Source of the DNA: Bacteroidales bacterium
GTDB lineage: Bacteria > Bacteroidota > Bacteroidia > Bacteroidales > GCA-2748055
Reading direction: 5' to 3'
Assembly (NCBI GenBank): GCA_041393235.1
Contig: JAWKKO010000005.1
Coordinates: 117,186 to 181,185 of the forward strand
DNA length: 64,000 nucleotides
Under the pieces are notes generated by a model that saw only the letters and a program-made list of their open reading frames with translations, was not told the DNA's origin and did not search any database. A program made the position numbers and the translations under genes. Position 1 is the stretch's first letter; each line of letters starts with the position of its first letter. Positions 19,600 to 64,000 of this stretch are shown here, one piece after another.

Positions 19600-21267
19600 T
19601 TACCGGATGGCCGGATCCGGGGTGTGGGTCAGGGCCGGCGGCAACCGGTCGAGCCAATCGTACCTTTCTGCATGCGGGTCCAATTCCGAATGTGATTCTG
19701 CATCCAGATGCATCTGCCAACGAATGTCTTCATTGGCTGCCGGCCAGGAGGGCAGCCCCGGTCCGTTGGGATCGTGGCTCCGGATGAAATTCTCAAAAAA
19801 GCCCTGCATCACGTCCGATACCCTGAAGTCCTCCGGTTGCCAGTCGTACACGCGGTTGGTGGACAGGTTCCCAAGGGCATACTCGATCTCTGCCGAATGG
19901 ACCGCCCCCACAACAGCAGGGGGTTCCTCGGAGGTCTCACCCCGCACGATGCCACCGGCAAATCCGGGGCTGGCAGGACCGATTTCCGAGCGCATCGCAG
20001 GGCGGGGACGGGCATAAAAATAGCGAAATACCGGACTTTCTCCCGTTTCCCTGTGCAGTTCCATCCATTTCCAGGTGTTGAACCCGGCAAACCGGTCCCC
20101 GGCAAGATCGGTTGCCGCACGGACCACCTCCCCGTCGGTTTGGGCCGGATACATTTGAAGAGCCTCCATCGCATGCGATCCGTACAACTCCTCCAAAACC
20201 CTTCGATACCGGTCCAGCGTCGGTTCGAGCTGTCCGAAAAGAAACATGTGATTCATTTCCATGGAGTTCCACCCCACCAGGAGAGGGACCTTGGCTTGCT
20301 TGCCTTCCGCAAAAATCCGGGAAGGATAATCCGGAAAAAAATAATTGTCCACGTTGGGAGGGAAATAGGGAGCTCCTTCCAAGCCGCTGGTTTCAAGGAT
20401 TTCCTCGGCCGGCATGCCCCGCAACTCCTTCAACGTTTTGCCGCCGGCCAAACGGGCAAACGCCAGACCGAGAGCCTCGGCATCGCTCAGAGAAAGCGGA
20501 ACGATGGTGGAATTCATCAGCGCTCCGCTCTCCCCGATGGCAGCAGAAAACAAGTCTTTCGAAAGCGGGGAGGCCATCTGGGCGCACACCGAACGGGCAC
20601 CGCAGGATTCTCCGGCGATGGTGACCCGCTGCGGGTCCCCGCCGAAGTAGTGAATGTTGTTCCTTACCCAGGCAAGGGCTGCCGCCTGATCCATGAGGGC
20701 ATAGTTGCCCGAACCTGCATGGTTGGATTCCGCTGTGAGCTCGGGATGCGCCATGAATCCAAAAACCCCGAGACGGTAATTCACCGTTACCGAAACGATT
20801 CCCCTTCGAGCCATGCTCTCCCCATCGTACCGGGGTTCGGAACCGTCGCCCGCCCGGTATCCGCCACCATAAAAATAGACCAGGACCGGGTACCCTTCCT
20901 CTCCGGAGCTGGCCGGAGTCCACACGTTCAGATACAGGCAATCCTCGCTCATGCCCGACGCCCTGAAAAACATATCGCCGTAGATGGACAGTTGCATTGC
21001 ACGGGGGCCGAATGCATCCGCTTTCCGGATTCCGGTCCAGACCGGTGCATCCCCGGGCGGTTTCCAACGAAGATCGCCCACCGGAGCCGCTGCGAAGGGA
21101 ATCCCCTTGAATGTTTTGATTCCGGAACCGGAGACTCCCTCGAGCAGCCCCTGTTCCGTTCGTACGATGGGCGGATCGGCCTCCAATTGGGCTTTCACAC
21201 CCAATCCCGGCCACAAACCCAGCCCCACGCATCCCATCCAGATCTTTACAAACCTTTCAACTTTCAT
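19600..21267 (-). CDS. Carboxylesterase/lipase, type B
   Basis: Oxyanion-hole motif YFYGGGYRAGDG, nucleophile elbow GESCGA, and a signal-peptide-like N-terminus. The start (21267 or 21237) is uncertain because repeat sequence runs into the first 10 codons. Confidence 0.9.
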   Translation of the reverse strand: MKVERFVKIWMGCVGLGLWPGLGVKAQLEADPPIVRTEQGLLEGVSGSGIKTFKGIPFAAAPVGDLRWKPPGDAPVWTGIRKADAFGPRAMQLSIYGDMFFRASGMSEDCLYLNVWTPASSGEEGYPVLVYFYGGGYRAGDGSEPRYDGESMARRGIVSVTVNYRLGVFGFMAHPELTAESNHAGSGNYALMDQAAALAWVRNNIHYFGGDPQRVTIAGESCGARSVCAQMASPLSKDLFSAAIGESGALMNSTIVPLSLSDAEALGLAFARLAGGKTLKELRGMPAEEILETSGLEGAPYFPPNVDNYFFPDYPSRIFAEGKQAKVPLLVGWNSMEMNHMFLFGQLEPTLDRYRRVLEELYGSHAMEALQMYPAQTDGEVVRAATDLAGDRFAGFNTWKWMELHRETGESPVFRYFYARPRPAMRSEIGPASPGFAGGIVRGETSEEPPAVVGAVHSAEIEYALGNLSTNRVYDWQPEDFRVSDVMQGFFENFIRSHDPNGPGLPSWPAANEDIRWQMHLDAESHSELDPHAERYDWLDRLPPALTHTPDPAIR

Positions 21268-21308
21268 CCCCTTTACAAACTTTATAACTTTATAACTTTA
21301 TGAACTCC
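21243..21308. repeat. AT-rich ACTTT-phased repeat element, copy 1
   Basis: The sequence tctttacaaacctttcaactttcatcccctttacaaactttataactttataactttatgaactcc lies here. Positions 21270-21295 are identical to 62861-62886 (a 26-mer). The 14-mer at 21243-21256 is identical to the reverse complement of 62709-62722. Confidence 0.8.
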
Positions 21309-50428: not shown

Positions 50429-50584
50429 GGGGCTCCGTTTCTAGCTCCCGCAAAGATAGAAAATGGAGGGATTTGTATGTCAGAGGCGCCTGGTCCAGTC
50501 GCGTTTTTTGTGCAATTGAACCAGAGGATTTTATCTTTGCGTACAAAGACGTTCATTTTCTCTAAGATTTGCTTCGGAAAACCC

Positions 50585-50830
50585 ATGAAATGCCGTGATC
50601 ATTGCGGGGCATGCTGCGTTGCCCCCTCCATCTCCTCCCCCATTCCGGGCATGCCCGACGGGAAGCCGGCCGGCGTGGCCTGCATCCATCTGTCCGAGGA
50701 TTTCCGGTGCCTGATCTACGATCATCCCAACCGTCCCAAAGTCTGCGATGCCTTTCAGGCCGATCCCCTGGTGTGCGGCACCTCCCGGGAAGAAGCCATC
50801 ATTCTCCTCACCGCCCTGGAGTACGATTGA
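50585..50830 (+). CDS. YkgJ-type cysteine-cluster (CxxCxxCC) protein
   Basis: ATG at 50585 gives [12 protein letters not shown]...GVACIHL...FRCLIY...KVCDAF. The family call is from the Cys pattern only. Confidence 0.6.
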
Positions 50831-50838
50831 CCCGGTGG

Positions 50839-51540
50839 CTACAGTCTCTGCAGCAAGATTTCCTTCAATTCCCTTTTTACCACCTCAAAATCCAGGGGAC
50901 GGCCCAGCTCCTTCGCCATGGAGGTGACGCCCTTGGTCTGGAAGCCGCAGGGATTGATGTAGGTAAAATAATCCAGGTTGGTGTTCACGTTCAGGGCGAA
51001 TCCGTGCATGGTGACATACCGGCTGCTTCGAACCCCGATGGCGCAGATCTTCCGGGTCAGGGCCGGCCTGTCGGTGTCCAGCCACACGCCGGTGGCGCCT
51101 TCCAGGCGGGTGGCCGTGATGCCGTAGAAGGCCAGGATGGCGATGATGCCGTCCTCCAGAAGGGCGATGTATTGCTTCAGGCCCAGGCCGCGTTCCTCCA
51201 GATCCAAGATGGGATAGCCCACGATCTGACCCGGACCGTGGTAGGTGATGTCGCCGCCCCGGTTGGTCTTGAAATAGGTGGCCCCGATGTTCTTCAGAAA
51301 TTCGTCACGGATCAGCAAATTGCCTTCGTCTCCGCTCTTTCCCAGTGTGTACACGTGGGGATGCTCGCAGAACAACAGGTATTGGGCGGGCTTCCTCTCC
51401 TGTGGTTTCCGTTTGTGTTCCACCAGCTTGTGGAAGCGATCTTCCTGGGTTTCCCAGGCCCGGGCGTACTCCATGAGGCCCAGGTCTTCGAATTCGATAG
51501 GAGTTCTGTGGTCCATACCTTGTCGCTGCTTGAACGACAA
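50839..51540 (-). CDS. lipB: Lipoyl(octanoyl) transferase
   Basis: Motifs FCEHPHVYTLGKSG, RGGDITYHGPGQIVGYPIL and KICAIGV. The start may be the internal Met 8 codons downstream. Confidence 0.9.
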   Translation of the reverse strand: MSFKQRQGMDHRTPIEFEDLGLMEYARAWETQEDRFHKLVEHKRKPQERKPAQYLLFCEHPHVYTLGKSGDEGNLLIRDEFLKNIGATYFKTNRGGDITYHGPGQIVGYPILDLEERGLGLKQYIALLEDGIIAILAFYGITATRLEGATGVWLDTDRPALTRKICAIGVRSSRYVTMHGFALNVNTNLDYFTYINPCGFQTKGVTSMAKELGRPLDFEVVKRELKEILLQRL

Positions 51541-51550
51541 AAGTAGGGAA

Positions 51551-52780
51551 CTATTGGCAAAATTCCGTGATGATGCGCAACAGCAGGTCGTTCAGCTTCT
51601 CATCTTCGTATTCCCCGGTGGTGGGTTCAAGGTGATCGTTCCCCACACCGCTGACGTCGGTGACAAAGGTGTAGGTGCCGTTGGTGAGGGTGGCAAAGAA
51701 GCGAAGCAGAAACTCCGTATCCCGGTTCACCCCGCTGGCGGCGATGGGAACAATGCGAATTCCCTTCGCTGCCGCGGCGGGGATCACCTCATGCAATTTG
51801 GCTGCAATGGAAGACTCGAGATGGGGAGGGGCATCCAGCAACAAAAACAGGATGCGGGCCCGGGCCGACGAGGACCAGCTGTGCTGGGTGACGGCTTCCT
51901 CCAGGGCCATTTCCACGGCTTCTTCATAGTCCCCGCCGCCATCGGCGGACTGGGCACCCACGAAGGACATCAGACTTTGTACATCGGAATTGAAAGCATG
52001 GGAACGGGTCACATATTCGTCCCCCAGGTCCCGGTAAAACACGGAACCATAGCGCAAATTAAGGTTGGGAACCGAATCGGCTGCTTTGTTCAGGACATCA
52101 GTCAGTTCCACCTTCAGGTATTCAAGCTCATCGCCCATGGAACCGGTGGCATCCACAACGAACATGATGTCGGCTTCATCCCGCACCGGGGCATCCGCGG
52201 TTGCCTCCACCGAATTCACCCCGTCCGAATACTCCATAGCATTGCCTGAGGCGATCTGCACGGAGTTCATCAGAATCCGGTATTGAAGGGTGCCGGCTCC
52301 CGGAGCCGGTGCCAGGGCATTGGCCCAGCACTCGGCCCTCCCGAGATTGTCGGTCCGCCCGGTCCAGATTCGGTCCCCGTCGTGGAGCAGTTCCACCGTG
52401 GCGTCCATCACCGGATCACCCTGGGCATCTGCCACCTGAAAGCTGTATCGTTCAAAGGGATAGAAACTCCAATTTTCCTGTGCCGTCCCGAATTCTTCCA
52501 TTTGCTGCAAATCGAGCCAGAAATCCCAGTTCTCCAGATCGTTCCACTCACCAGCCGTCAACACACCGGCCTGGTATTGTCCGCCGTCTCCCCCCGTGCC
52601 CTCTCCTCCGGACCCGGATCCGCTCTCGCCACCGGTCAAACCATAGGCCGAATCTGTCAGGTATCCCGTGGAACTGCCGTCTTTTTCACCGGTCGAAGGG
52701 TCATCCAATTCAGAACAAGCCTGGAAGAGACCCAACATCAGGGCCAGGGAGGATAACAGAAGGAGATTTCCGTGTTTCAT
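51551..52780 (-). CDS. von Willebrand factor type A domain lipoprotein
   Basis: Lipobox MKHGNLLLLSSLALMLGLFQAC, then a Gly/Ser-rich linker. MIDAS-type motif is IMFVVDATGSMGDE. Confidence 0.8.
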   Translation of the reverse strand: MKHGNLLLLSSLALMLGLFQACSELDDPSTGEKDGSSTGYLTDSAYGLTGGESGSGSGGEGTGGDGGQYQAGVLTAGEWNDLENWDFWLDLQQMEEFGTAQENWSFYPFERYSFQVADAQGDPVMDATVELLHDGDRIWTGRTDNLGRAECWANALAPAPGAGTLQYRILMNSVQIASGNAMEYSDGVNSVEATADAPVRDEADIMFVVDATGSMGDELEYLKVELTDVLNKAADSVPNLNLRYGSVFYRDLGDEYVTRSHAFNSDVQSLMSFVGAQSADGGGDYEEAVEMALEEAVTQHSWSSSARARILFLLLDAPPHLESSIAAKLHEVIPAAAAKGIRIVPIAASGVNRDTEFLLRFFATLTNGTYTFVTDVSGVGNDHLEPTTGEYEDEKLNDLLLRIITEFCQ

Positions 52781-52852
52781 TTCTTTGGGTTTCCCTCAGG
52801 ATGCCAGCCGGAGGAAAAGGGATGCGTCGGATGCAAAAAAAAATCCGGCAGT

Positions 52853-53734
52853 CTACACGTGCCGTTCGGCGTGGTAAGAGGAGCGCACGAGGGGACTCGA
52901 TTCCACTTCCTGGAAGCCCCGGATCAAGGCCTGTTCCTTGAAATCCGCAAACACATCGGGATGAACATAGGCCGCCACCGGCATGTGGGCCAGGGTGGGC
53001 TGCAAATACTGGCCCAGGGTGAGTACCTCGCATCCGGCCTCCCTCAGGTCATCCATGGCGCGGAGGACCTCCTCCTCCCGCTCGCCAAGTCCAAGCATGA
53101 GGCCCGATTTGGAGCGCAGCGGGGACTGGGCCACCTGGCGGATGACGGCCAGACTGGTGGCGTACCTTGCCCGCGAACGGATGGCCGGGGTGAGGCGTTC
53201 CACCGTTTCCAGGTTGTGGGAAACAACCTCCGGTGCGGCATCGAGGACCCTCTGAACGAGATCGGGACGGGCATCGAAATCCGGAATCAGGGTTTCCAGT
53301 GTCACCCCGGGAAGATCGCGCTTCAGCGTCCTTATGGTCTCCACCCAGAAACCGGACCCCTTGTCGGGCAGATCGTCGCGGTCCACCGACGTGAGCACGG
53401 CATGCTTTACCCCCATGGTCCGGATGGATTCCACCAGCCGCCGGGGTTCGTCATCGTCGGGAGGCAGGGGCCTTCCCGTTGTCACGGCGCAAAACTTGCA
53501 GGCCCGGGTGCAGATGTCGCCCAGGATCATGAAGGTGGCCGTTCCGTTGGCCCAGCATTCCCCGATGTTGGGACAGTTGCCGCTGGTGCAGATGGTGTGC
53601 AGGCGGTGTTCGGCCACCTGCGCTTTTACCTGCATGTAGCGGTCGCCTCCCGGCATGCGCATGCGCATCCATTCGGGCAGGCGCTTTCTGTCCTTGGGTC
53701 CGATCCTGGAATTTTCCATGGCACGAAGATACAA
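52853..53734 (-). CDS. lipA: Lipoyl synthase
   Basis: Both cluster motifs are present: CTSGNCPNIGEC (auxiliary) and CTRACKFC (radical SAM). Confidence 0.95.
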   Translation of the reverse strand: MYLRAMENSRIGPKDRKRLPEWMRMRMPGGDRYMQVKAQVAEHRLHTICTSGNCPNIGECWANGTATFMILGDICTRACKFCAVTTGRPLPPDDDEPRRLVESIRTMGVKHAVLTSVDRDDLPDKGSGFWVETIRTLKRDLPGVTLETLIPDFDARPDLVQRVLDAAPEVVSHNLETVERLTPAIRSRARYATSLAVIRQVAQSPLRSKSGLMLGLGEREEEVLRAMDDLREAGCEVLTLGQYLQPTLAHMPVAAYVHPDVFADFKEQALIRGFQEVESSPLVRSSYHAERHV

Positions 53735-53766
53735 AGGATTGATCCGGAAATCCTACTTTTGCCTCC

Positions 53767-54393
53767 ATGAACGATTCCACCGAACTTCTTCAATTGGCCA
53801 AACGGGTTCAGGCCCTGGCGGAAAACGGGTTGCACTACACCGAAAACGACTACGACATCGACCGATACCAGGACCTGGAAGCCATTGCCCTGAAAATGCT
53901 TTCCCTGCTGGGCGGCAAACCCCTGGAGGAAATCCGGGAACTGACCACCGAACGCAACGGCTACCGGACGCCGAAGGTGGATGTTCGCTGTGTTGTCTTC
54001 AACGAGTCGAACGAGATCCTGATGGTCCGGGAACGGATCGACGGGTGCTGGTCCCTTCCCGGGGGCTGGTGCGATGTGGGTTTCACCCCCTCGGAAATCG
54101 CCGTCAAGGAAACACGGGAAGAAGCGGGGATCGAGGTGAAAGCCGGTCGGCTGCTGGCCATCTTCGACAAGAAATGCCACCCCCATCCCCCCGAACTGAT
54201 CTACACGTACAAACTCTTCATGGAGTGCATTCCACTGACCCTGGACATCCAGACCGGCATGGAAACCCTGGATGTGGGATTCTTTTCCAGGGACAATCTG
54301 CCCGAGCTTTCCACCCCTCGAAACACAAGGAACCAAATCGAAGCCATGTTCGAGTTCCGGGAAGGCCGGCATGCCTGGCCCATGGTGGACTGA
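53767..54393 (+). CDS. NUDIX hydrolase with N-terminal Nudix_N_2-type helical domain
   Basis: Nudix box GGWCDVGFTPSEIAVKETREEAGIEV (GX5EX7REUXEEXGU). Confidence 0.85.
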   Translation: MNDSTELLQLAKRVQALAENGLHYTENDYDIDRYQDLEAIALKMLSLLGGKPLEEIRELTTERNGYRTPKVDVRCVVFNESNEILMVRERIDGCWSLPGGWCDVGFTPSEIAVKETREEAGIEVKAGRLLAIFDKKCHPHPPELIYTYKLFMECIPLTLDIQTGMETLDVGFFSRDNLPELSTPRNTRNQIEAMFEFREGRHAWPMVD

Positions 54394-54492
54394 GCAATAT
54401 GCTGGTCAAACCCATGGCAGAATAGGAGATTTCCCCTATTTTTGCGTCGAATCTGAAACCCCGGTCCAAACCGGGTTTCCACCGTCCCGAGC

Positions 54493-55941
54493 ATGCGCAC
54501 AGAGAAAGATTTTCTTGGAGAAGTCTCCCTGCCCACCGACGCCCTGTATGGCATCCATTCCTACCGGGCCAAAAAGAACTTTCCGGGTCAGACCGCCTTT
54601 CCGGAAGCCTGGTACCGGGCCATGGGCGTTGTCAAGCATGCCTGTTACCGGACCGTTCGAAAATTCCAGGAAGCCGTCCGGCGGGAATACCCCGATGTGC
54701 TGGACCACCTGCGACTTCCCGATGAGAAAATCCTTGGGGCCATGGAAACTGCCGCCACGGAAGTGGCATCCGGCTCCCATTTCGACCAGTTCATTGTCCC
54801 GGGCGGACAGGGGGGTGCGGGAACCAGCATCAACCTCAATGTGAATGAAATCATTTCGAATGTGGCGTTGAAGGCCCTGGGCCGGAATCCGGGCGATTAC
54901 GAGGCCATCGACCCCATTGAAACGGCAAACATTTTCCAATCCACCAACGATGTGGTGCCCACCGCCCTGACCGTGGCCACCATGCGACTCCTGACCGGGT
55001 TGGAGGAGCAGATCAACCGCACCCGGTCCCAGGTCGAGGCACTCGAAAACCAATACCGGAACAGCCTCCGGATCGCCTTCACCCAGATGCAGGAAGCGGT
55101 CCCGTCCACGTACGGACAATTGTTCAGTTCCTACAGCGACGCCCTGTCCCGGGATTGGTGGCGGGTGTCGAAGGGATTCGAACGCATCAAGGTGGTGAAC
55201 CTGGGTGGCGGAGCCGTGGGAACCGGTTTGTCCATCCCCCGCTTCTTCCTCATGGAGGTGGTCCCGGCCCTGAAGAAACTCACGGATTTGCCCGTGACCC
55301 AGGGAGAAAACCTGGTGGATGCCACGGCTAACCTGGACCGATGGGTGGAAGTCCATGCGATCCTGAAGGCCCATGCGGTGAACCTGGAGAAGATGGTCTC
55401 CGACCTGCGGCTTCTGGCATCGGGGGTGGGCGGCAACCGGGAAGTGGAATTGCCCTCCCGACAGGTGGGCAGCTCCATCATGCCGGGCAAGGTGAATCCT
55501 GTGATCCCCGAATACATCATTTCCTCCGCCCACCGGATCTATGCCAACGATGCCCTCATCGCCACCCTGTCGGCGCAGGGATGCCTGGAATTGAATGCTT
55601 ATTTGCCTGAAATCGGAGTGGCCATGCTTCAAAGCCTGGAAAGCCTCATCGCCATGAACCAGGCGCTGACAGACGGCATGCTGGAGGGTCTCCGGATCAA
55701 CGAAGATACTGCCAGGGACAAATTGTTCCGGAGTCCGGCCGTCACCACGGCCCTCTCCCCCCTGATCGGTTACCACCGGGCGGCGGAACTGGCGCAGGAG
55801 ATGAAAACGAGCCGATCGTCCATATTTGAGGCAAACGACCGGGTTCACGTGCTGCCTCCCGAAAAATTGGAGCAAGCGATGGAAGCCTCCAACCTGTTGA
55901 AAAAAGGGTTTACCATGAACGACATCCGGGAACTGCAATGA
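54493..55941 (+). CDS. Aspartate ammonia-lyase/fumarase-superfamily protein (hyd-linked aspartase-like)
   Basis: Superfamily signature GSSIMPGKVNP and N-terminal EKDFLGEVSLPTDALYG. The stop overlaps the hydF start (ATGA at 55938). Confidence 0.85.
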   Translation: MRTEKDFLGEVSLPTDALYGIHSYRAKKNFPGQTAFPEAWYRAMGVVKHACYRTVRKFQEAVRREYPDVLDHLRLPDEKILGAMETAATEVASGSHFDQFIVPGGQGGAGTSINLNVNEIISNVALKALGRNPGDYEAIDPIETANIFQSTNDVVPTALTVATMRLLTGLEEQINRTRSQVEALENQYRNSLRIAFTQMQEAVPSTYGQLFSSYSDALSRDWWRVSKGFERIKVVNLGGGAVGTGLSIPRFFLMEVVPALKKLTDLPVTQGENLVDATANLDRWVEVHAILKAHAVNLEKMVSDLRLLASGVGGNREVELPSRQVGSSIMPGKVNPVIPEYIISSAHRIYANDALIATLSAQGCLELNAYLPEIGVAMLQSLESLIAMNQALTDGMLEGLRINEDTARDKLFRSPAVTTALSPLIGYHRAAELAQEMKTSRSSIFEANDRVHVLPPEKLEQAMEASNLLKKGFTMNDIRELQ

Positions 55942-57176
55942 AAGGACGCGACGCCAAACCCCACCTGGGAATCTTCGGAAGACGGAACAACGGAAAGTCC
56001 TCCCTGATCAATGCATTGGCCGGACAGGAGGTGGCCATCGTCTCGGAGGAAGCCGGAACCACCACCGATCCCGTGAAAAAAACCATGGAGATTCCGGGCA
56101 TCGGTCCCGTCGTGGTCATCGATACCGCAGGAACCGACGACAGCGGCGAACTGGGTCAGAAACGGGTCAAAAAGACCCGGGAAGTGTTCCGGCACATCGA
56201 TCTGGGCATCGTCGTTCTTGCGGACAACCGGTTCGAGGACGAGGAGCGGGAAATCGTCCGCCAGCTGGATCAGTGGGAAGTTCCCTACGTGGTTGTACAC
56301 AACAAAGCCGACCGGGATGCTCTCCGGGACGATACGGCCCGACAGGTGAAAGAAGCAACGGGGCGGACCTGTTTCGATTTTTCCGCCCTGGAACCCGGGA
56401 AAAAGCCCCGGGACAAAAACGCCCTGGTGGCCGTCATCCGGGACGCCATCCCTGAGACGGCCTACCTGACCAAGAGCCTGGTGGGGGATTTGATCCGCCA
56501 GGGCGACCTGGTGCTGTTGATCACCCCCATCGACGACGAAGCCCCGGAGGGGAGGCTCATCCTGCCCCAGGTACAGGCCATCCGCGACATCCTCGACAAC
56601 GATGCCGTGGCCGTGGTGGTCAAGGAACGGGAGGTGGATGCCCTGTTGAAGACACTCCGGCCCCGACCCGCCCTGGCCATCACCGACAGCCAGGTCTTTA
56701 AAAAGGCCGATGCCTCGGTGCCCGGCGACATCCCACTGACCAGTTTCAGCACCGTGCTGGCCCGGTACAAGGGAGATTTCGACAACTACCTGAAAGGTAC
56801 GCCCCAGCTTGGAAAGCTGAAGGACGGGGACCGCATCCTGATCCTGGAATCCTGCACCCACCATGTCTCCTGCGACGACATCGGACGGGTGAAGATTCCC
56901 CGGTGGTTGTCCGCTTTTTCCGGAAAACAACTGGCGTTCGAAGTGGTCTCGGGACTCAATGAGATTCCCGGTCGAATCGAAGAGTACCGGATGGTCATCC
57001 AGTGCGGCGGGTGCATGATCACCCGCAAGCAATTGATCAACCGGCTGAAACCGGCCGTGGACGCAGGCATTCCCGTCACCAACTATGGCATGGCGATTGC
57101 TTACATGCACGGCATTTACGAACGGGCCATCGCTCCTTTCACCAAGGTGGAACCGGGGCAGGTATCCTACCTGTAG
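55938..57176 (+). CDS. hydF: [FeFe]-hydrogenase H-cluster maturation GTPase
   Basis: P-loop GRRNNGKSSLINAL, then TTTDP, DTAG and NKAD. The C-terminal cluster motif is CTH...x46...QCGGC. Confidence 0.9.
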   Translation: MKGRDAKPHLGIFGRRNNGKSSLINALAGQEVAIVSEEAGTTTDPVKKTMEIPGIGPVVVIDTAGTDDSGELGQKRVKKTREVFRHIDLGIVVLADNRFEDEEREIVRQLDQWEVPYVVVHNKADRDALRDDTARQVKEATGRTCFDFSALEPGKKPRDKNALVAVIRDAIPETAYLTKSLVGDLIRQGDLVLLITPIDDEAPEGRLILPQVQAIRDILDNDAVAVVVKEREVDALLKTLRPRPALAITDSQVFKKADASVPGDIPLTSFSTVLARYKGDFDNYLKGTPQLGKLKDGDRILILESCTHHVSCDDIGRVKIPRWLSAFSGKQLAFEVVSGLNEIPGRIEEYRMVIQCGGCMITRKQLINRLKPAVDAGIPVTNYGMAIAYMHGIYERAIAPFTKVEPGQVSYL

Positions 57177-57207
57177 GATGCGGGTGGACCATGTCAATTT
57201 GAAGACA

Positions 57208-58323
57208 ATGAGTTTTGAAAAGATACTGAATCAGGAAACATTCGAGCGGAACGATCTGATCCGGATGCTGGATGCCGAGGGTGAAGACCGGCAGGCGCTT
57301 TTTCAGAAAGCGGCCTGGGTCAAGCGGCAGGAAGTGGGCCGGAAGGTGCATTTCCGGGGACTTGTGGAATTTTCCAACCACTGTGCCAAGGACTGCTACT
57401 ACTGCGGCATCCGCAAGTCGAACCGGGAAACCCAACGCTACAATCTCACCGACGACCAGATCCTGCAGGCGGCCCGCTTCGCCCATGAAAACAACTACGG
57501 GTCCTTTGTGATGCAGGCCGGTGAACTGGAATCACCCGCCTTCACCCAGCGGGTGGAAAATCTGCTCCGGGAAATCAAATCCCTTTCGGGAGGAAAACTG
57601 GGCATCACCCTTTCCCTGGGCGAGCAGGAACGCGAGGTCTACGACCGCTGGTTCGATGCCGGCGCCCACCGCTACCTTCTGCGCATCGAATCGTCCAATC
57701 TGGAACTTTACCGCAAATACCATCCCGACGATGCCATGCACAGCTTCGAACGGCGGCTGCAGTGTTTGCACTCGTTGCAGGACCTGGGATACCAGACGGG
57801 AACGGGCGTCATGATCGGTCTGCCCTTTCAGGACACGGGCCACCTGGCCGACGATCTGTTGTTCATGCGCGATCTGGATGTGGACATGGTGGGCATGGGA
57901 CCCTACATCGAACACCACGAAACCCCCATGTATGAATACCGGGAGCACCTTCGGCCCATCGGGGAACGATTCGACCTGGCTCTGAAGATGGTGGCCACCC
58001 TCCGCATCCTCATGCGGGACATCAACATCGCTGCCGCCACGGCACTGCAGGCCATCGACCCCATGGGACGGGAAAAAGCCATCCGCGTGGGCGCCAACAT
58101 CATCATGCCCAACATCACCCCGGGGACCTTCCGCAACGACTACGATCTTTATGAAAACAAACCCTGCGTGGACGAAGAACCCGAGGAATGCCGGAATTGC
58201 CTGGATGTGCGCATCCAACTGGCCGATGGGGAAATCGGGTACGGAGAATGGGGCGACTCGGTCCATTTTTCCAAGCGCATGATGAAACAGAACACCCACA
58301 TTCCGGACGATTCCAAGGCATGA
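57208..58323 (+). CDS. hydE: [FeFe]-hydrogenase H-cluster radical SAM maturase
   Basis: ATG at 57208 (MSFEKILNQETFERNDLIRML). Radical SAM motif is CAKDCYYCGIR. The layout is biotin-synthase-like. Confidence 0.9.
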   Translation: MSFEKILNQETFERNDLIRMLDAEGEDRQALFQKAAWVKRQEVGRKVHFRGLVEFSNHCAKDCYYCGIRKSNRETQRYNLTDDQILQAARFAHENNYGSFVMQAGELESPAFTQRVENLLREIKSLSGGKLGITLSLGEQEREVYDRWFDAGAHRYLLRIESSNLELYRKYHPDDAMHSFERRLQCLHSLQDLGYQTGTGVMIGLPFQDTGHLADDLLFMRDLDVDMVGMGPYIEHHETPMYEYREHLRPIGERFDLALKMVATLRILMRDINIAAATALQAIDPMGREKAIRVGANIIMPNITPGTFRNDYDLYENKPCVDEEPEECRNCLDVRIQLADGEIGYGEWGDSVHFSKRMMKQNTHIPDDSKA

Positions 58324-59236
58324 AGGCCGATCTTCACATCCATTCCCGGATCAGCGGCGACGGGGAGCATTCTCCGGAAACCCTGATGCAGATGGCATGG
58401 AATGAAGGCCTGGAATTGATCACCCTGACCGACCACAACAGCACCCGGGGATGTGGGGCTGCCGCAGAAGCTGCTGCATCCCGAGACCTGCTGTTTCTCC
58501 CCGGTGTGGAGATCGATTGCGCATTCGAAGGCACCGACATGCACCTGTTGGGTCTGGGGATCCGGGCCGGGGATCCCTGGTTCGAATCCCTGGAAAATGA
58601 GATCCGGGAAAATCGGATGGCCCTGGTTCCGGCCATGTGGGAAAACCTGAAAAAGCTTGGAATCCGGGTGAACCTGGAGGATGTCATGGCCCAAGCTCGG
58701 GGGAAGCCCCTGATGGTGAACACTTTGCGGAAGTCCTGCTCGGCAGGCCGGAAGCAGCCTCGAACCCTATGCTTCGGCCCTATCTCCCCGGTGGAAGCCG
58801 CAGCGACATGCCGCTGATCAATTTTTACCTGGACTATTTCGCTCAGGGAAAACCCGCCCACGTGCCCATGGAACGGATGCATGTGGGCGAGGCGGTGGAC
58901 CAGGTGCTGGCTTCGGGCGGAATTCCGGTGGTTGCCCATCCGGGTTTGAATTTCAAGGGCAAGGAAGCCCGGGTATCCGGTCTTCTGGACGCAGGCATTC
59001 GGGGTCTGGAGGTGTTCAACAACTACCACACCGAAGAGCAAAGCGAATTCTTTGCCGGTCTTGCGAAGAAACACAAATGCCGGATAACCTGCGGAAGCGA
59101 TTATCACGGAAAAACCAAACCCCGCATCCGGCTGGGGATGTACGGGGATCCGGGTTCCCACCGGAGCGATCTGGAAGAATCGATGGAATACTGGGCGGAT
59201 CTGGCCCGGCACACCACCGGAAAGCTAACCTTGTAA
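58320..59236 (+). pseudogene. PHP-domain (polymerase/histidinol phosphatase-like) phosphoesterase, reading frame broken once at a G5 run (58699-58703)
   Basis: The ATG overlaps the hydE stop (ATGA). The N-terminus MKADLHIHSRISGDG...ITLTDHNS...GVEI is a classic PHP pattern. After ...AQAR the sense continues in the -1 frame (GEAPDGEHFAEVLL...VVAHPG...GLEVFNNYH...CGSDYHG). Confidence 0.75.
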
Positions 59237-59239
59237 CCC

Positions 59240-60412
59240 ATGAAACACAGAAACTTCCGATTTCGGCTCGACCTGCGTCGAATGACGCTTTTGCTTGCTT
59301 CGGCTCTGCTGATGGTTCAATGCGACCGTTCGTCCGAATCCGGCCAGACCGGGACACGCGCCGACCTCCCCTCCAGCGCTCCGGCCGCTTTCTCCGTTGA
59401 TCGGCCCGTTCTGAACCGACGACAGGCATCGAACCTGGCTGCCCTCCCCCTGGCCTGCATCGAAACGGAGTACCCCAACAAACTCGGGCAAACCCTGTCC
59501 CATGCAGAGGAAATCGGGGAACCCCATCAGCTTCATCCGGCTTTCTACGGTTGCTTCGACTGGCATTCCGCGGTTCACGGACACTGGTCCCTGGTGGCCC
59601 TGCTGCGGCAGTTTCCGGACCTGGAGGAGGCCGGGCGCATCCGGACCCTGTTGTCGGACCGGCTGACCCCGGAAAACATTCGTGCCGAAACGGCCTATTT
59701 TGAACGGGAGGGGGAATACGCCTTCGAGCGGACCTACGGATGGGCCTGGTTGTTGAAACTTGCCCAGGAGCTGCACCTCTGGGACGATCCGCTGGCCAGG
59801 GAACTGGAAGAAAACCTCCGTCCCCTCACCGATCTGATCCTCCTCCGGTACGCCGACTTCCTTCCCAGGTTGTTGTACCCGGTCCGTGTGGGCGAACACC
59901 CCAACACCGCCTTCGGCATGTGCTTTGCCTGGGACTATGCGAAGACCCTGCAAAAAGACACCTTACTAACCCTCTTCGCAGAGCGGGCGACCACCTATTT
60001 TATGTCCGATCAGGGCTGCCCCATCGACTGGGAACCGGGTGGATTCGATTTTCTATCCCCCTGTCTGGAAGAAGTGGACCTCATGCGAAGGGTGCTGGGA
60101 AAGGAAGAATTCCTGGAATGGCTGTCCCTCTTTATGCCGGAAATTCTGGAACCCGGTTTCCAGTTGGAGGTGGCCCGGATTTCGGACCGCAGCGACGGGA
60201 AACTGGTCCACCTGGACGGACTCAATTTCAGCCGGGCCTGGGTGCTGTACGGACTGGCCAATCTGGATCCCCGGTTCGCTCAGCTGGAGCCCCTTGCCAA
60301 CGCCCACATCGAGGCTGCGCTTCCAAACCTGGTGGGAGATGGCTACGAAGGGGGTCACTGGCTGGGATCCTTTGCCATCTACGCCCTGCAGGAAGCAGGC
60401 CTGCACCATTGA
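59240..60412 (+). CDS. DUF2891-like protein
   Basis: It starts 4 nt after the PHP stop. The pattern CIETEYPNK...LHPAFYGCFDWHSAVHGHWSLVALL matches my recollection of DUF2891. Confidence 0.7.
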   Translation: MKHRNFRFRLDLRRMTLLLASALLMVQCDRSSESGQTGTRADLPSSAPAAFSVDRPVLNRRQASNLAALPLACIETEYPNKLGQTLSHAEEIGEPHQLHPAFYGCFDWHSAVHGHWSLVALLRQFPDLEEAGRIRTLLSDRLTPENIRAETAYFEREGEYAFERTYGWAWLLKLAQELHLWDDPLARELEENLRPLTDLILLRYADFLPRLLYPVRVGEHPNTAFGMCFAWDYAKTLQKDTLLTLFAERATTYFMSDQGCPIDWEPGGFDFLSPCLEEVDLMRRVLGKEEFLEWLSLFMPEILEPGFQLEVARISDRSDGKLVHLDGLNFSRAWVLYGLANLDPRFAQLEPLANAHIEAALPNLVGDGYEGGHWLGSFAIYALQEAGLHH

Positions 60413-60436
60413 TCCTCCGTCCGGATCCGGGCCGGA

Positions 60437-62668
60437 TCAGCCGATGTCCTTTTGGTCGTGGGCGTTCACGAACAGGATGTTGCCCATTCCTTCGTATCCC
60501 AGGAAGACCTTTTGCCCTTCGTGCCGGAGCAATTCCGCATGGTACCCGATGATGCTCAGTCCGGCGTGGGCGGAATGTTCGATCATCAGCTCCCGGGTGC
60601 TCTTTCCGGGCGATTCAGGCAACACCTGGATGTTTTTCGACGTGATGGGCAGGCGTCCCGTCAGAACCAGCTGCTCCAGGTTCTGCCTTGTTTCGTCTTC
60701 CTTTCCCTTTTTGCACACATCGTACACTGTGATTTCGCTTTTGCGCCAGGAGGGATGACCCTGGATGATGAAGCTCATGAGGATCATAAGGTGGGAGTTC
60801 TCATAATCCGTGCTCTGGATCCACACGTGGATGCCGTTGCTGTAATTGATGGTCCGGTCGCTGGAGCCAAAGATGCAGACGTCGAACCGACCCGCGTTCA
60901 CCAGGGAAAAATTCTCCACGATCTCTTTCAGGTTCTGGGGATTTTCCCGGTCGTACTCAAATATGACCATGTTGTTCTCCATGCCGGAGATTCCCGGAAC
61001 CTGGATGGCCTGTGCCACCGCGGAGGTGTACGAGGGCGAGATCATGGTGTCCACGTACACATGGCTGCCTTTTCCTTTGAAATTCTTGATGAGCTTGTCC
61101 AGCTCCTCCACCGAGCGTTGCAATGTGGCCCTCGAATAATAGCCCTCGATGAGGTGGATGTAGGTTCCGAAGCCGTATTTGTGGCTGATCCAGTTCAGGA
61201 GCAAAAAGGCTTTGTCGCGGTGAAAGGAATCCCGGGTGATGCAAATGGCACTGGGCCGCCATTCCTTGTCTCCTCCCCGGTTCTTGCTCGATTGCTGCAA
61301 ATAGACCTGGAGGTTCCGGTTCAGCTGGAACAGGGAGTTGGTAAAGATGGCCACCAGCCCTTTCCGGTCCTTGTGCACATAATTGATGAACATGTACAGC
61401 AGGAGCATGGCCGCGATGGCCACGATGGCAAAGAGGGTGTCGATTTTGAACATGACCCAGAAGGATGCCACAAAACCCACCAACGAAACGTACCATCTGG
61501 AACGGAACGAGGGCCGGTAGGAAGGGGACGAACCGAAATGGTGAAGGAAAGAGATCAGGCACAGAGCCCCGTAGGTTACCATGAAAAACATGGAGATGAT
61601 GGAGGCCACGGTGTTGACATCGCCCAGAAGAATAAAGAACATGGCGATGGCTGCGGTGACCAGGGTGGCGTTGTGTGGCTCCCGGGCCGGTCCCTTGCCC
61701 TTGTAAAGAAAAATGTTCAGCTTTCTTGAAGGAAAGGAGCGGTCGCCGGCCAGTGCCTGCAGGGTCCGCGGAGCCACCAGGATGGATCCGATGGCCGATG
61801 AAAAGGTGGATGCGGCCAATCCCAGGGGAATGACAAAGGAACCGCCGAGGGCGATGTCGGCCATAACGAGCTGATTCTGCGGGTCGGCCAGAGTTGCCAG
61901 GTCGGCCGATGCCGCCAATTTCCAAACAACGAAAAAGTAGACGATCATTCCCGAAATGGTGGCCGTCACCGTACCGATGGGAATGGACCGCCCCGGTTTC
62001 TTCAGATCGCCGGACAACCCCACCCCGGCCGTCATGCCGGTAAAAGCCGGAAAGATGATGGCAAACACAGTGAAAAACTGACCCCGGTCGCCCCGGGCCG
62101 CCTCCATGAGCGAGAAACTGTGAACCTGCCCGTATTCGGTCTGCCCGAGAAAAAACATCAGGAGGGAGATGAACAGGATAGCGACCACAATGTACAGGGT
62201 TTGCATGCCCACCGACGATCCTTTTTTCAGGATCAGAAGGGCCAGCAGAAACATGGCGGGCACACTGATGACCTGACGGGGCAAGGTGAAGGCAAACCGG
62301 TTCTGAATCCACCGAAACAGGATTTCAAAGGATTCGGTGAAAGCGATGATGTAAAAAGCGACACTGATGGCCTGACTCAAAAACAGGGCAAATCCGATGG
62401 TGGCGCCGATGTTCATCCCGAAGGAACGGGAGATGATGAAATACTCGCCCCCTCCTTCCACCCGCTTGTTGGTCGCTATTTCAGAGATGGCGAGGGCCGT
62501 GGGAATGGTAACCAGATGCCCCAGCAGCACGATCCCCACCACCCCCCAGAAGCCCAGGGTGCCCACGGCGAATCCGAAACGAAGGAACAGGATGGCTCCC
62601 AGAATGGTGGCGATGGCCGTGAAAAAGACGGGGGCGGTACCGAAGGATTTGGCGGATGGTGCGGCCAT
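60437..62668 (-). CDS. APC-superfamily permease of the cation-chloride cotransporter (SLC12)-like type with large C-terminal cytoplasmic domain
   Basis: 743 aa. The N-terminal ~460 aa form a 12-TM amino-acid-permease fold (GTAPVFFTAIATILGAILFLRFG). The C-terminal ~280 aa are soluble. Confidence 0.8.
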   Translation of the reverse strand: MAAPSAKSFGTAPVFFTAIATILGAILFLRFGFAVGTLGFWGVVGIVLLGHLVTIPTALAISEIATNKRVEGGGEYFIISRSFGMNIGATIGFALFLSQAISVAFYIIAFTESFEILFRWIQNRFAFTLPRQVISVPAMFLLALLILKKGSSVGMQTLYIVVAILFISLLMFFLGQTEYGQVHSFSLMEAARGDRGQFFTVFAIIFPAFTGMTAGVGLSGDLKKPGRSIPIGTVTATISGMIVYFFVVWKLAASADLATLADPQNQLVMADIALGGSFVIPLGLAASTFSSAIGSILVAPRTLQALAGDRSFPSRKLNIFLYKGKGPAREPHNATLVTAAIAMFFILLGDVNTVASIISMFFMVTYGALCLISFLHHFGSSPSYRPSFRSRWYVSLVGFVASFWVMFKIDTLFAIVAIAAMLLLYMFINYVHKDRKGLVAIFTNSLFQLNRNLQVYLQQSSKNRGGDKEWRPSAICITRDSFHRDKAFLLLNWISHKYGFGTYIHLIEGYYSRATLQRSVEELDKLIKNFKGKGSHVYVDTMISPSYTSAVAQAIQVPGISGMENNMVIFEYDRENPQNLKEIVENFSLVNAGRFDVCIFGSSDRTINYSNGIHVWIQSTDYENSHLMILMSFIIQGHPSWRKSEITVYDVCKKGKEDETRQNLEQLVLTGRLPITSKNIQVLPESPGKSTRELMIEHSAHAGLSIIGYHAELLRHEGQKVFLGYEGMGNILFVNAHDQKDIG

Positions 62669-62689
62669 GGGGGCAAGTGTTGTTTACAT

Positions 62690-62697
62690 CAAAGTTA
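62690..62697 (-). promoter_or_regulatory. Bacteroidota-type -7 box candidate (TAACTTTG on - strand) upstream of the permease
   Basis: Matches the TAnnTTTG consensus. It ends 21 nt upstream of the ATG at 62668. No clear -33 TTTG partner was found. Confidence 0.25.
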
Positions 62698-62760
62698 GTA
62701 AAGTTTGTAAGGTTTGTAAAGAAATTGAGTTTTTAAAGGAGTGGCAAAGTATGTCAAGTT

Positions 62761-62792
62761 GGGAAAGTGAGTGGGAAAGTGAGTGGGAAAGT
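62761..62792. repeat. Tandem 12-mer gggaaagtgagt x2.7
   Basis: Read directly: gggaaagtgagt gggaaagtgagt gggaaagt. Confidence 0.9.
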
Positions 62793-62840
62793 TGCCGCCC
62801 CCTGCTCCCCAACTTTACAAACTTTCCCAACTTTCAAACT

Positions 62841-62880
62841 CCTTTACAAACTTTATAACTCCTTTACAAACTTTATAACT
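62841..62880. repeat. Exact tandem 20-mer cctttacaaactttataact x2
   Basis: Read directly: 62841-62860 is identical to 62861-62880. Confidence 0.9.
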
Positions 62881-62898
62881 TTATAAACTTTACCAACT

Positions 62899-64000
62899 CT
62901 AGAAATACAAATCCCGCTCCCCCTTGCGGATCCGCTCCAGCCGCTCCTCGACCCGTGTCTTGAATTTTCCATCCTCCATCTCCTGGAGGTTTTTCTCGAT
63001 GAGCCGGTAGCCCTTTTCCCTGGTGCCGTTGACGGCATAATCCTCCAGGTACTCGGCCATGGTGAGCATGGCATTGGGCGTGCAATAGCGCTTGATGAAT
63101 CCGGGAACGGAGAATTCCATGAAATGCTCGCCGGTGCGGCCGGTTCGGTAGCAGGCCGTGCAAAAGGACGGGAGGTAGTCGTTTTCGATCAATTCGTCCA
63201 TCACCTCGGCCAGGGAGCGGTTGTCGTTGATCTGAAATTGTTCCGCATCCAGGTCCTGGTCGTTTTTCTTCTCGGCGTAAGCTTTGAGCTCGATCTTGGT
63301 TCCGCCGTCGATCTGGGAGACCCCGAAACCGAGGATCTCGTCCCGGATGGCTGCGGGTTCCCGGGCCGTCAGGATCAGACCGGTGTAGGGAACAGCCAGG
63401 CGCAGGATGGCCACCATGCGGGTGAAATCCTCGTCGCTTACCTCCCACCGGGGATCCACCCTGACCCCGGAGGCCGCCTTCAGCCTCGGGAAGGATATGG
63501 TGTGGGGCCCCACGTTGTACACGGCCTCGAAATGATTCACATGGCGGAGAAGACCCAGCACCTCAAACCTCCAGTCGTACAGTCCGAACAGCGCTCCGAT
63601 CCCCACGTCGTCGATGCCGGCTTCCTGGGCCCGGTCCAGGGCGGTGATCCGCCAATCGTAGTCCTTTTTCACTCCGCCGGTGTGGTATTTGGCGTAGGCT
63701 CCCCGGTGGTAGGTTTCCTGAAAGACCTGGTAGGTACCGATGCCGGCCTCCTTCACCGTCCGGAAGCCCTGAATATCCAATGGAGCCGCGTTGATGTTCA
63801 CCCGGCGGATCTCCCCGTTGCCCTTTTTGACCTGGTACACGGTACGCACGGTTTCCGCAATGAATTCCGGGTTGTATTTGGGGTGCTCCCCGTAGACGAG
63901 GATCAGGCGCTTTTGCCCCATGTCCTCCAGCATCTCCACTTCCCGGATCAGTTCCTCGTTGTTCAGGGTGCTTCTGCGCTGGCTCTTGTTGGAGGTGCGG
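62899..64000 (-). CDS. hydG: [FeFe]-hydrogenase H-cluster radical SAM maturase HydG, C-terminal ~365 aa (N-terminus beyond window edge)
   Basis: The frame stays open to base 64000. The C-terminal CX2CX22C cluster motif is present (CTACYRTGRTGEHFMEFSVPGFIKRYC). The protein ends in the ...GERDLYF tail I associate with HydG. Confidence 0.9.
   Translation of the reverse strand, partial: RTSNKSQRRSTLNNEELIREVEMLEDMGQKRLILVYGEHPKYNPEFIAETVRTVYQVKKGNGEIRRVNINAAPLDIQGFRTVKEAGIGTYQVFQETYHRGAYAKYHTGGVKKDYDWRITALDRAQEAGIDDVGIGALFGLYDWRFEVLGLLRHVNHFEAVYNVGPHTISFPRLKAASGVRVDPRWEVSDEDFTRMVAILRLAVPYTGLILTAREPAAIRDEILGFGVSQIDGGTKIELKAYAEKKNDQDLDAEQFQINDNRSLAEVMDELIENDYLPSFCTACYRTGRTGEHFMEFSVPGFIKRYCTPNAMLTMAEYLEDYAVNGTREKGYRLIEKNLQEMEDGKFKTRVEERLERIRKGERDLYF

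Follow-up and report, generated by a model that had tools for sequence, protein, structure and literature searches.

Which of the genes that surround an H-cluster maturase operon take part in maturation, and which have been inherited alongside it? The question is raised by a 64,000-nt stretch of DNA (hereafter the window) from a Bacteroidales bacterium (GenBank assembly GCA_041393235.1, contig JAWKKO010000005.1, positions 117,186 to 181,185), whose right-hand part carries hydF, hydE and hydG together with an ammonia-lyase homolog, a PHP-family phosphoesterase, a DUF2891 protein and the lipoylation genes lipA and lipB. A sequence-only reading of the window had put forward the lyase, the PHP protein and DUF2891, and possibly the lipoylation genes, as uncharacterized accessory maturation factors. 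From the gene identities, their junctions and the occurrence of each gene in related loci, we consider it probable that the locus is an ordinary H-cluster maturase set accompanied by a published aspartase partner, and that the other neighbors are passengers kept by shared ancestry.

The Maturase Set and the Comparison Loci

Gene identities were assigned by scanning the open reading frames (ORFs) of the window against Pfam and NCBIfam profiles and applying the NCBIfam equivalog cut-offs. HydE, HydF, HydG, LipA and LipB all score above theirs (Table 1). The proteins of the locus are MEZ5070478-85 at NCBI, and HydF is 100% identical to MEZ5070480.1. HydF has the Pfam domains MMR_HSR1, HydF_dimer and HydF_tetramer and the P-loop GRRNNGKS; its cluster motif, CTH...QCGGC (residues ~305-360), retains three cysteines and the first histidine, with glutamine at the position of the second histidine. 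HydE carries the radical-SAM CX3CX2C motif as CAKDCYYC at residue 59, and the C-terminal CX2CX22C motif of HydG is present as CTAC-x22-C within the 366 residues in view.

For comparison, HydF was scanned for in one genome per GTDB species, which gave 80 Bacteroidota loci with HydF identities of 60-78%, and a further 18 loci were added from gene-context look-ups; individual loci are cited below by number (L001 and so on). Homologs of each window gene were sought in these loci by tblastn, and presence was scored solely for loci whose contig reached far enough, so that the denominators vary. Close relatives (clade A; HydF identity of at least 68%, n = 39) were counted separately from more distant ones (clade B; 60-67%, n = 41). 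By this measure hydE lies near hydF in 33/35 clade A and 5/38 clade B loci, and hydG in 7/19 and 1/28, respectively.

The sequence-only reading had remarked that no gene for the catalytic subunit, hydA, is in view, and this holds: the HydA signatures L1, L2 and L3 (TSCCPxW, MPCxxKxxE and ExMxCxxGCxxG) were not found in a six-frame scan of the window, and none of the scanned window ORFs matches Fe_hyd_lg_C or a hydrogenase family. The hydA signature is also absent within 10 kb of hydF from 97 of the 98 related loci; L074 alone has the L1 motif, at the end of its contig. Because hydA is missing from so many relatives, its absence here is unremarkable, and a hydF locus that lacks a nearby hydA is normal for the Bacteroidales lineage studied.

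The Lyase Adjoining hydF

The lyase gene directly adjoins hydF in 33/37 clade A and 26/35 clade B loci, and the two genes share a 4-nt overlap in 28 of 60 loci. Here the overlap is the ATGA at 55938-55941 that the sequence-only reading had noticed. The gene product is named 'lyase family protein' by the Prokaryotic Genome Annotation Pipeline (PGAP). Its best NCBIfam matches are aspartases, under the cut-off of both families (TIGR00839, 352.8 vs. 681.2 bits; NF008909, 427.2 vs. 510 bits). Aligned to Bacillus AspB (1J3U; 290 bits), the protein keeps the equivalents of T101, S140-T141-N142, T187, S318, K324 and N326; the segments GGAGTSIN, QSTNDV and FTQMQEAVP align with 1J3U, and the SS loop, GSSIMPGKVN at residues 326-335, follows the GSSxMPxKxN pattern. 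The position of AspB H188 is occupied by glutamine, a residue that E. coli AspA presumably carries there as well. Taken together, these features favor reading the protein as a true aspartase that has diverged.

A link between such a gene and hydF has been described before. An ammonia-lyase gene lies within ±20 ORFs of 79% of authentic hydF genes, and in genome-context networks aspA almost always directly adjoins hydF (Pagnier et al., J Biol Chem 2024, PMC11736057). In the same study, which used a defined maturation system, the dithiomethylamine ligand obtained its bridgehead nitrogen from E. coli AspA plus 15N-aspartate, the aspartate-derived nitrogen traveling by way of the aminomethyl-lipoyl-H-protein (PMC11736057). 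What the sequence-only reading had given as background is borne out in two respects: aspartase-like genes beside hydEFG are documented both by that study and by the adjacency counts above, and the part of the bridge supply that concerns lipoyl-H-protein and ammonium is published (PMC11736057). Its proposal for the lyase itself stands in part: the co-transcribed enzyme is a hyd partner and plausibly a local source of ammonium, but the link is already known from the literature, biochemistry included, and the lyase is neither uncharacterized nor a new candidate.

As a side observation, the hyd-linked lyase is split into two tblastn pieces in two other metagenome-assembled genomes (MAGs; L008:8555-10001 and L067:7507-8938), and the L008 pieces abut and differ in frame. 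As these cases show, frameshifts of assembly origin are frequent among the comparison loci.

Gene Map

The gene map of the sequence-only reading was reproduced by the ORF listing and the profile scans (Table 1), including hydG on the other strand behind an SLC12-like permease. The remaining junctions were read from the sequence: the hydF stop at 57176 is followed by the hydE ATG at 57208, the hydE stop and the PHP start share the ATGA at 58320-58323, as had been claimed, and the DUF2891 ATG at 59240 comes 4 nt past the PHP stop (59234-59236), also as claimed. Two entries needed amendment. The upstream order lipB, VWA, lipA and NUDIX is correct, but the NUDIX gene does not belong to the lipB/lipA strand group and lies on the plus strand with the lyase. 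The PHP gene was rightly identified and its junctions are correct, but it is not a single open frame; two frames are joined at a GGGGG run, as described below. A 248-aa ORF at 53626-54372 (minus strand), for which no family match was found, was rejected as the shadow of the plus-strand NUDIX gene.

Table 1. Features of the hyd locus (window coordinates), with the profile evidence for each.
Feature	Position	Strand	Evidence and remarks
CxxCxxCC (PF03692) small putative metal-binding protein	50477..50830	+	Pfam; convergent with lipB, neighbor outside the hyd set
lipB, octanoyl/lipoyl transferase	50839..51540	-	PF21948; TIGR00214, 146.7 bits vs. cut-off 83.6
VWA-domain protein, between lipB and lipA	51551..52780	-	Pfam, tblastn
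lipA, lipoyl synthase	52853..53734	-	TIGR00510, 353.8 bits vs. cut-off 310.3
TAnnTTTG motif	53754..53761	+	5 nt 5′ of the NUDIX ATG; position alone suggestive
NUDIX hydrolase (Nudix_N + NUDIX), CDP-Chase/ADP-ribose pyrophosphatase-like	53767..54393	+	Pfam
TAnnTTTG motif, likely promoter of lyase-hydF-hydE	54437..54444	+	48 nt 5′ of the lyase ATG; position alone suggestive
Aspartate ammonia-lyase homolog, Lyase_1/FumaraseC_C	54493..55941	+	Lyase_1, 193 bits
hydF, H-cluster maturation GTPase/scaffold	55938..57176	+	TIGR03918, 489.5 bits vs. cut-off 325.6
hydE, radical SAM maturase	57208..58323	+	TIGR03956, 344.4 bits vs. cut-off 254.6
PHP-family phosphoesterase (TrpH/YciV / pAp-phosphatase-like), frame broken	58320..59236	+	Pfam, NCBIfam
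DUF2891, predicted lipoprotein, (α/α)6-toroid fold	59240..60412	+	PF11199, 430.7 bits vs. cut-off 25
SLC12-like (cation-chloride-cotransporter-type) APC permease, AA_permease, 3′ of hydG	60437..62668	-	Pfam, NCBIfam
AT-rich spacer, 9-nt CTTTACAAA-type units	62669..62898		two inverted halves, long hairpin
TAnnTTTG motif	62690-62697	-	within the spacer, before the permease
hydG, radical SAM tyrosine lyase, 3′ 366 codons in view	62899..64000	-	TIGR03955, 419.8 bits vs. cut-off 312

PHP and DUF2891 Downstream of hydE

A neighborhood survey had been set by the sequence-only reading as the test of conservation, and in our counts the linkage to hydEF is conserved for the lyase and largely not conserved for PHP and DUF2891. 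PHP lies within 5 kb of hydF in 4/26 clade A and 0/33 clade B loci, DUF2891 in 6/26 and 1/31, and both together in 2/26 clade A loci. Pairs that served as controls are tighter (DUF6263-hydG, 9/9; CxxCxxCC-lipB, 13/14), which makes the two candidates less syntenic than unrelated neighbors. The proposal that they are accessory maturation factors fails on these counts, and also on the occurrence of the PHP-DUF2891 pair without hyd genes (L088) and behind unrelated genes of sugar metabolism (L094), on that of the DUF2891 family in aerobic Flavobacteriia and Campylobacter jejuni, and on the predicted export of DUF2891, so that a maturation role for either protein is not supported by the comparisons made here. 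Neither remains a plausible candidate for a missing maturation factor.

The slot 3′ of hydE is variable among relatives. Depending on the locus, it is occupied by various combinations of genes for a CE4 polysaccharide deacetylase, an acetyltransferase (hexapeptide or GNAT), PHP, DUF2891, ABC-F, ATP-grasp and zf-DksA proteins, and it is empty in L026. PHP and DUF2891 recur as parts of a module that consists of an exported CE4 polysaccharide deacetylase (its N-terminus is signal-like on inspection of the sequence), with or without a GNAT/hexapeptide acetyltransferase, PHP and DUF2891; the genes often overlap, PHP and DUF2891 with each other among them. The module is found with or without hyd genes (L088:9090-12026, L089:8283-12000, L091:4209-5961 and L096:9273-10894). 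In L088, a 767-kb contig, CE4-PHP-DUF2891 is bordered by the outer neighbors known from hyd-bearing relatives, and the lyase, hydF and hydE were not found within ±10 kb of it; in L094 the order is Aminotran_3-FGGY-Aldolase_II-MFS-PHP-DUF2891-ATP-grasp. We read PHP-DUF2891 as part of a module of its own, related to the envelope or to glycans, which is gained and lost and is able to stand without hyd genes. The CE4 deacetylase gene of the module is absent here and would have been lost in the source genome, leaving PHP abutting the hydE stop. A 90-aa ORF that follows hydE in relatives was considered as a TM1266-like hyd regulator and rejected; it has a weak match to an NCBIfam polysaccharide-deacetylase C-terminal model and is a CE4 remnant.

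DUF2891 has a hydrophobic leader followed by cysteine in 10 of 10 distinct hyd-linked orthologs (the leaders end, for example, in ...LLIIGAC or ...VFLTAC, and here in ...ALLMVQC), and among 31 DUF2891 homologs, those of Flavobacteriia included, the lipobox cysteine reaches at least 90% conservation. These features suggest an exported lipoprotein. HydE, HydF and HydG act in the cytoplasm, and DUF2891 is an unlikely partner of the maturases because of its predicted export. An AlphaFold (AF2) model of the protein (predicted local distance difference test score, pLDDT, 82.9) was matched by Foldseek to Cj0554 of C. jejuni (8IEU/8IEV; target-normalized template modeling (TM) scores 0.85-0.87), and phmmer gave 1.3e-64 against 8IEU. 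Further Foldseek matches are weak and exclusively to (α/α)6 carbohydrate-active proteins, namely PL8 lyases, GH127, GH76, GH9 and alginate lyases.

The family reaches well beyond hyd loci. Homologs at 55-65% identity, the level seen among hyd-linked copies, occur in Aquimarina, Salegentibacter, Salinimicrobium and Cyclobacteriaceae, and the family is also present in C. jejuni; Aquimarina, Salegentibacter, Salinimicrobium and C. jejuni are, we assume, without hydEFG. In Aquimarina (L098:8001-12762), DUF2891 stands beside an Nramp transporter and LamB_YcsF, CT_C_D and CT_A_B genes, the last three of which we read as the 5-oxoprolinase genes pxpABC. In the C. jejuni cj0552-4 cluster it stands beside DUF969/DUF979, a putative 5-oxoproline transporter (PMC12795558). 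These two independent contexts point to 5-oxoproline- or glutamine-related chemistry as a lead for DUF2891.

The PHP gene requires separate comment, because its N-terminal (58320-58817) and C-terminal (58637-59236) pieces lie in different frames, and NCBI annotates the 165-aa N-terminal fragment as a separate protein. One explanation is that PHP is a true pseudogene here and the PHP-DUF2891 tail of the operon decaying cargo, which would fit the broken frame at 58699-58703 and the separately listed fragment. Compared with six intact orthologs, the break amounts to one G short in the GGGGG run at 58699-58703; the addition of one G restores '...ARGEAPDGEHFAEVLL...' and yields a 305-aa protein that keeps each invariant column of the intact orthologs, with no further stops in the downstream half. 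The core gene gltD (1886-3303) is broken alike, one G short in a GGGGG run at 2422-2426 where relatives imply GGGGGG. Since a core gene carries the same lesion, a homopolymer sequencing error is probably the better explanation of the PHP frame break, both frameshifts look like systematic under-calling of homopolymers in this MAG, and decay of PHP is rather unlikely. For the same reason, the frameshift was discarded as a sign that PHP is dispensable.

PHP belongs to the TrpH/YciV group, and its nearest structures are 2YB1 (pAp phosphatase) and 7UG9 (RNase AM). Against NF041577/NF047791, the cut-off of 400 bits is missed by the two pieces from the window (89.9 and 59.6 bits) and by an intact ortholog (140.9 bits). 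The protein has no leader peptide and so is compatible with the cytoplasm. It could be imagined that PHP, perhaps together with NUDIX, is a true accessory enzyme that removes inhibitors of the two radical-SAM enzymes and of the HydF GTPase, or their nucleotide by-products, and is co-transcribed with hydE on that account: its start overlaps the hydE stop, it stands 3′ of hydE in L009, L019, L021, L023, L025, L089, L091 and L096, its nearest solved relatives act on nucleotides, many of the best 120 PHP homologs share, by eye, their longest-contig size with the HydF matches, and NUDIX lies directly 5′ of the lyase in 12/28 close loci. We nevertheless give this explanation very little credence. 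Of the hydF loci, 22/28 close and 33/33 distant ones lack PHP; in relatives, the exported CE4 deacetylase and acetyltransferases come between hydE and PHP; and PHP accompanies DUF2891 without hyd genes in L088 and follows MFS, FGGY and aldolase genes in L094. The positive cases all fall in one clade, for which synteny by descent suffices. Moreover, PHP goes unmentioned among the hyd neighbors in the survey of Pagnier et al., and defined in vitro maturation runs without such an enzyme (PMC11736057).

lipA, lipB and the Upstream Flank

The sequence-only reading had cautioned that the adjacency of lipA and lipB to the hyd genes may be coincidental, and the caution was justified. Both genes are near hydF in 10/21 clade A and 1/23 clade B loci; NUDIX is 5′ of the lyase in 12/28 and 3/29, respectively, its nearest structures being PDB 3Q1P and 3O8S and its name at NCBI NUDIX hydrolase. 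The arrangement that recurs among close relatives, and that we take as ancestral, is gltB-gltD-amt-CxxC> <lipB<lipA NUDIX> (DUF4421<) lyase>hydF>hydE> [variable slot] <SLC12<hydG DUF6263>, where CxxC is the CxxCxxCC gene. The lipB/lipA genes are always on the strand opposite to hyd, and in L004, L017 and L033 a distance of 5-7 kb, containing other genes, separates them from the lyase. They travel with gltBD-amt-CxxC, which is equally syntenic. On a neighbor-joining tree of HydF, the presence of lipAB/NUDIX, of PHP and of DUF2891 is patchy across the comparison loci, a pattern that suggests an ancestral state followed by repeated loss. The lipB-lipA adjacency would then be ancestral synteny of one clade, with no recurrence outside it (1/23).

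Given the known chemistry, it is conceivable that the arrangement was selected, that is, that amt, gltBD, lipB-lipA and the aspartase were brought beside hydF-hydE to co-locate the ammonium and lipoyl-H-protein inputs of dithiomethylamine synthesis. A biochemical need for lipoyl-H-protein and ammonium has been published (PMC11736057; PMC12752695). The order gltD-amt-CxxC-lipB-lipA-NUDIX-lyase-hydF-hydE is contiguous in L012, L019, L022, L025, L026, L030 and L096, and the lipAB adjacency is scattered over the whole clade of at least 68% HydF identity, as expected of an ancestral state that was retained. If gltBD-amt-lipB-lipA-NUDIX-aspartase-hydF-hydE...hydG were indeed a selected arrangement, it would be the first in vivo genomic support for the lipoyl-H-protein route, so far known in vitro only, and lipoylation and ammonium genes held by hydF would tie that pathway to cell physiology. 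We judge this decidedly unlikely, however. The lipB/lipA strand and the intervening unrelated genes in L004, L017 and L033 speak against it, as do the loss of lipAB in about half of the close relatives, its single occurrence among the 23 distant loci, the ~45 kb inserted between amt and lipB here and the housekeeping nature of lipA and lipB. In addition, neither gcvH nor gcvT has a family match among the scanned window ORFs, and tblastn with an approximate E. coli GcvH query gave no match in the window. A coupling of lipAB to hyd has no statistical support because the arrangement has a single origin in a single clade. Present evidence, with one clade, the opposite strand and frequent loss, does not support a selected linkage of lipAB and ammonium genes to hyd, and inheritance with the surrounding genes remains the preferred explanation.

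Several further features of this flank were observed. The CxxCxxCC (PF03692) gene is tail-to-tail with lipB in 13/14 related loci, tighter than any link between hyd and lipAB. In relatives lipB directly adjoins lipA, and here a VWA gene is inserted between them; the N-terminus of the VWA protein is lipoprotein-like (…LGLFQAC), and its homolog in L001 lies beside NUDIX without lipA/lipB. CxxC-lipB comes straight after amt in relatives, and here the two are set ~45 kb apart (window ~4820-48280), which looks like a lineage-specific insertion or rearrangement. This stretch encodes a TonB-dependent receptor, an OprB porin, KatG, a GH9-CE4 enzyme, a carboxylesterase, several sensor kinases and a Na+/H+ exchanger, and the G+C content falls to 0.49-0.51 at 44-48 kb of the window. 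One distant locus, L063, has a partial GcvH-like match at its very edge (29-175; 46% identity to the E. coli GcvH query), ~8 kb 5′ of lyase-hydF; it is single and probably due to chance.

Transcription Signals and the hydG-Permease Interval

Copies of TAnnTTTG, the Bacteroidetes -7 motif, number 12 across the whole window vs. 12.3 expected, a chance frequency, and scans of the window for sigma-70 promoters and intrinsic terminators gave nothing above chance. The position of two copies relative to the NUDIX and lyase starts (Table 1) nonetheless suggests separate transcription starts for NUDIX and for lyase-hydF-hydE-PHP-DUF2891.

The SLC12-like permease gene is near hydF in 6/19 clade A and 0/28 clade B loci. 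The permease, of the K-Cl-cotransporter type, lies directly 3′ of hydG on the same strand in ~10 related loci confined to one clade (the pair is found in L012, L017, L019, L026, L030, L032, L092, L094 and L096 and is missing in L001, L028 and L091). Its candidate substrates are tyrosine, on which HydG acts, or an ion. The spacer between the two genes is 230 nt here vs. 40-70 nt in relatives, and a long hairpin is formed by the corresponding RNA (-75.9 kcal/mol, z = -5.8). A 13-mer of the spacer has 12 copies in the window vs. 0.76 expected, two of them near 21.25 kb (21244-21283). This sequence could be a small mobile element or repeat; alternatively, it could serve as a regulatory structure.

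A Model of the Locus

The functional core of the locus would be a lyase-hydF-hydE operon, which we infer from the translational coupling of lyase and hydF and from the Bacteroidetes-type promoter motif 5′ of the lyase. In the biochemical roles given in the literature, HydG makes the Fe(CO)2(CN)(Cys) synthon, HydE converts it to the dinuclear precursor and HydF serves as the scaffold for installing the dithiomethylamine bridge. The aspartase homolog would free ammonium from aspartate, and the ammonium would enter the bridge through the aminomethyl-lipoyl-H-protein, as it does in vitro with E. coli AspA. The remaining genes would form a neighborhood inherited within one Bacteroidales clade, with PHP and DUF2891 filling the variable slot; their status as passengers is what we infer from the distributions described above.

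Some observations weigh against so simple a division. At least 12 distinct related loci, drawn from genomes and metagenomes, have PHP and/or DUF2891 in the slot right after hydE, and the tight packing of these genes with hydE (the ATGA here) makes co-transcription and some co-regulation with hyd likely. The lipB-lipA-NUDIX adjacency appears to be ancestral to the whole clade of at least 68% HydF identity and to have survived considerable divergence, and the persistence of lipAB is at least suggestive, given the role published for lipoyl-H-protein. The lipoprotein assignment of DUF2891 was made by inspection of the sequence rather than by a dedicated predictor. Finally, the comparison loci are all from one order of Bacteroidota, so that the counts are phylogenetically non-independent, and this applies in both directions.

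Comparison with Known Systems

HydE, HydF and HydG correspond to their canonical counterparts (TIGR03956, TIGR03918 and TIGR03955), with the same equivalog-level scores and diagnostic motifs; the 5′ end of hydG here falls beyond window position 64000. HydF differs in one respect. The motif usually cited is CxH...HCxxC, whereas the Bacteroidota HydF proteins examined have glutamine for the second histidine, and the form CxH...QCxxC occurs in 93/93 related loci and in 119/120 top database matches.

Among the downstream genes, PHP has its fold family in common with the pAp phosphatase Cv1693 (2YB1) and E. coli RNase AM (7UG9), its best PDB and NCBIfam matches; the N-terminal HxH is conserved, as are the remaining metal-ligand positions. 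In contrast to these enzymes, it scores far under the equivalog cut-offs, indicating a distinct subfamily, and a CE4 deacetylase and DUF2891 are its usual companions. DUF2891 and Cj0554 of C. jejuni (8IEU/8IEV) share PF11199 and the fold (TM 0.87 to 8IEV), at 34-36% identity. The C. jejuni gene stands with DUF969/DUF979 in a glutamine-responsive cluster (PMC12795558), whereas the gene described here lies downstream of hydE and PHP.

The locus also parallels the hyd operons that contain aspA (PMC11736057), with which it shares a lyase gene 5′ of and coupled to hydF, followed by hydE, with hydG near. The published work differs in that its enzyme was E. coli AspA rather than a hyd-linked paralog, and Bacteroidales, lipA/lipB, PHP and NUDIX go unmentioned in the paper. 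The present locus adds an uncultured Bacteroidales case to the known pattern of hydEFG with an aspartase, one in which the hyd-linked lyase keeps the aspartase active site despite aspA scores below the cut-off.

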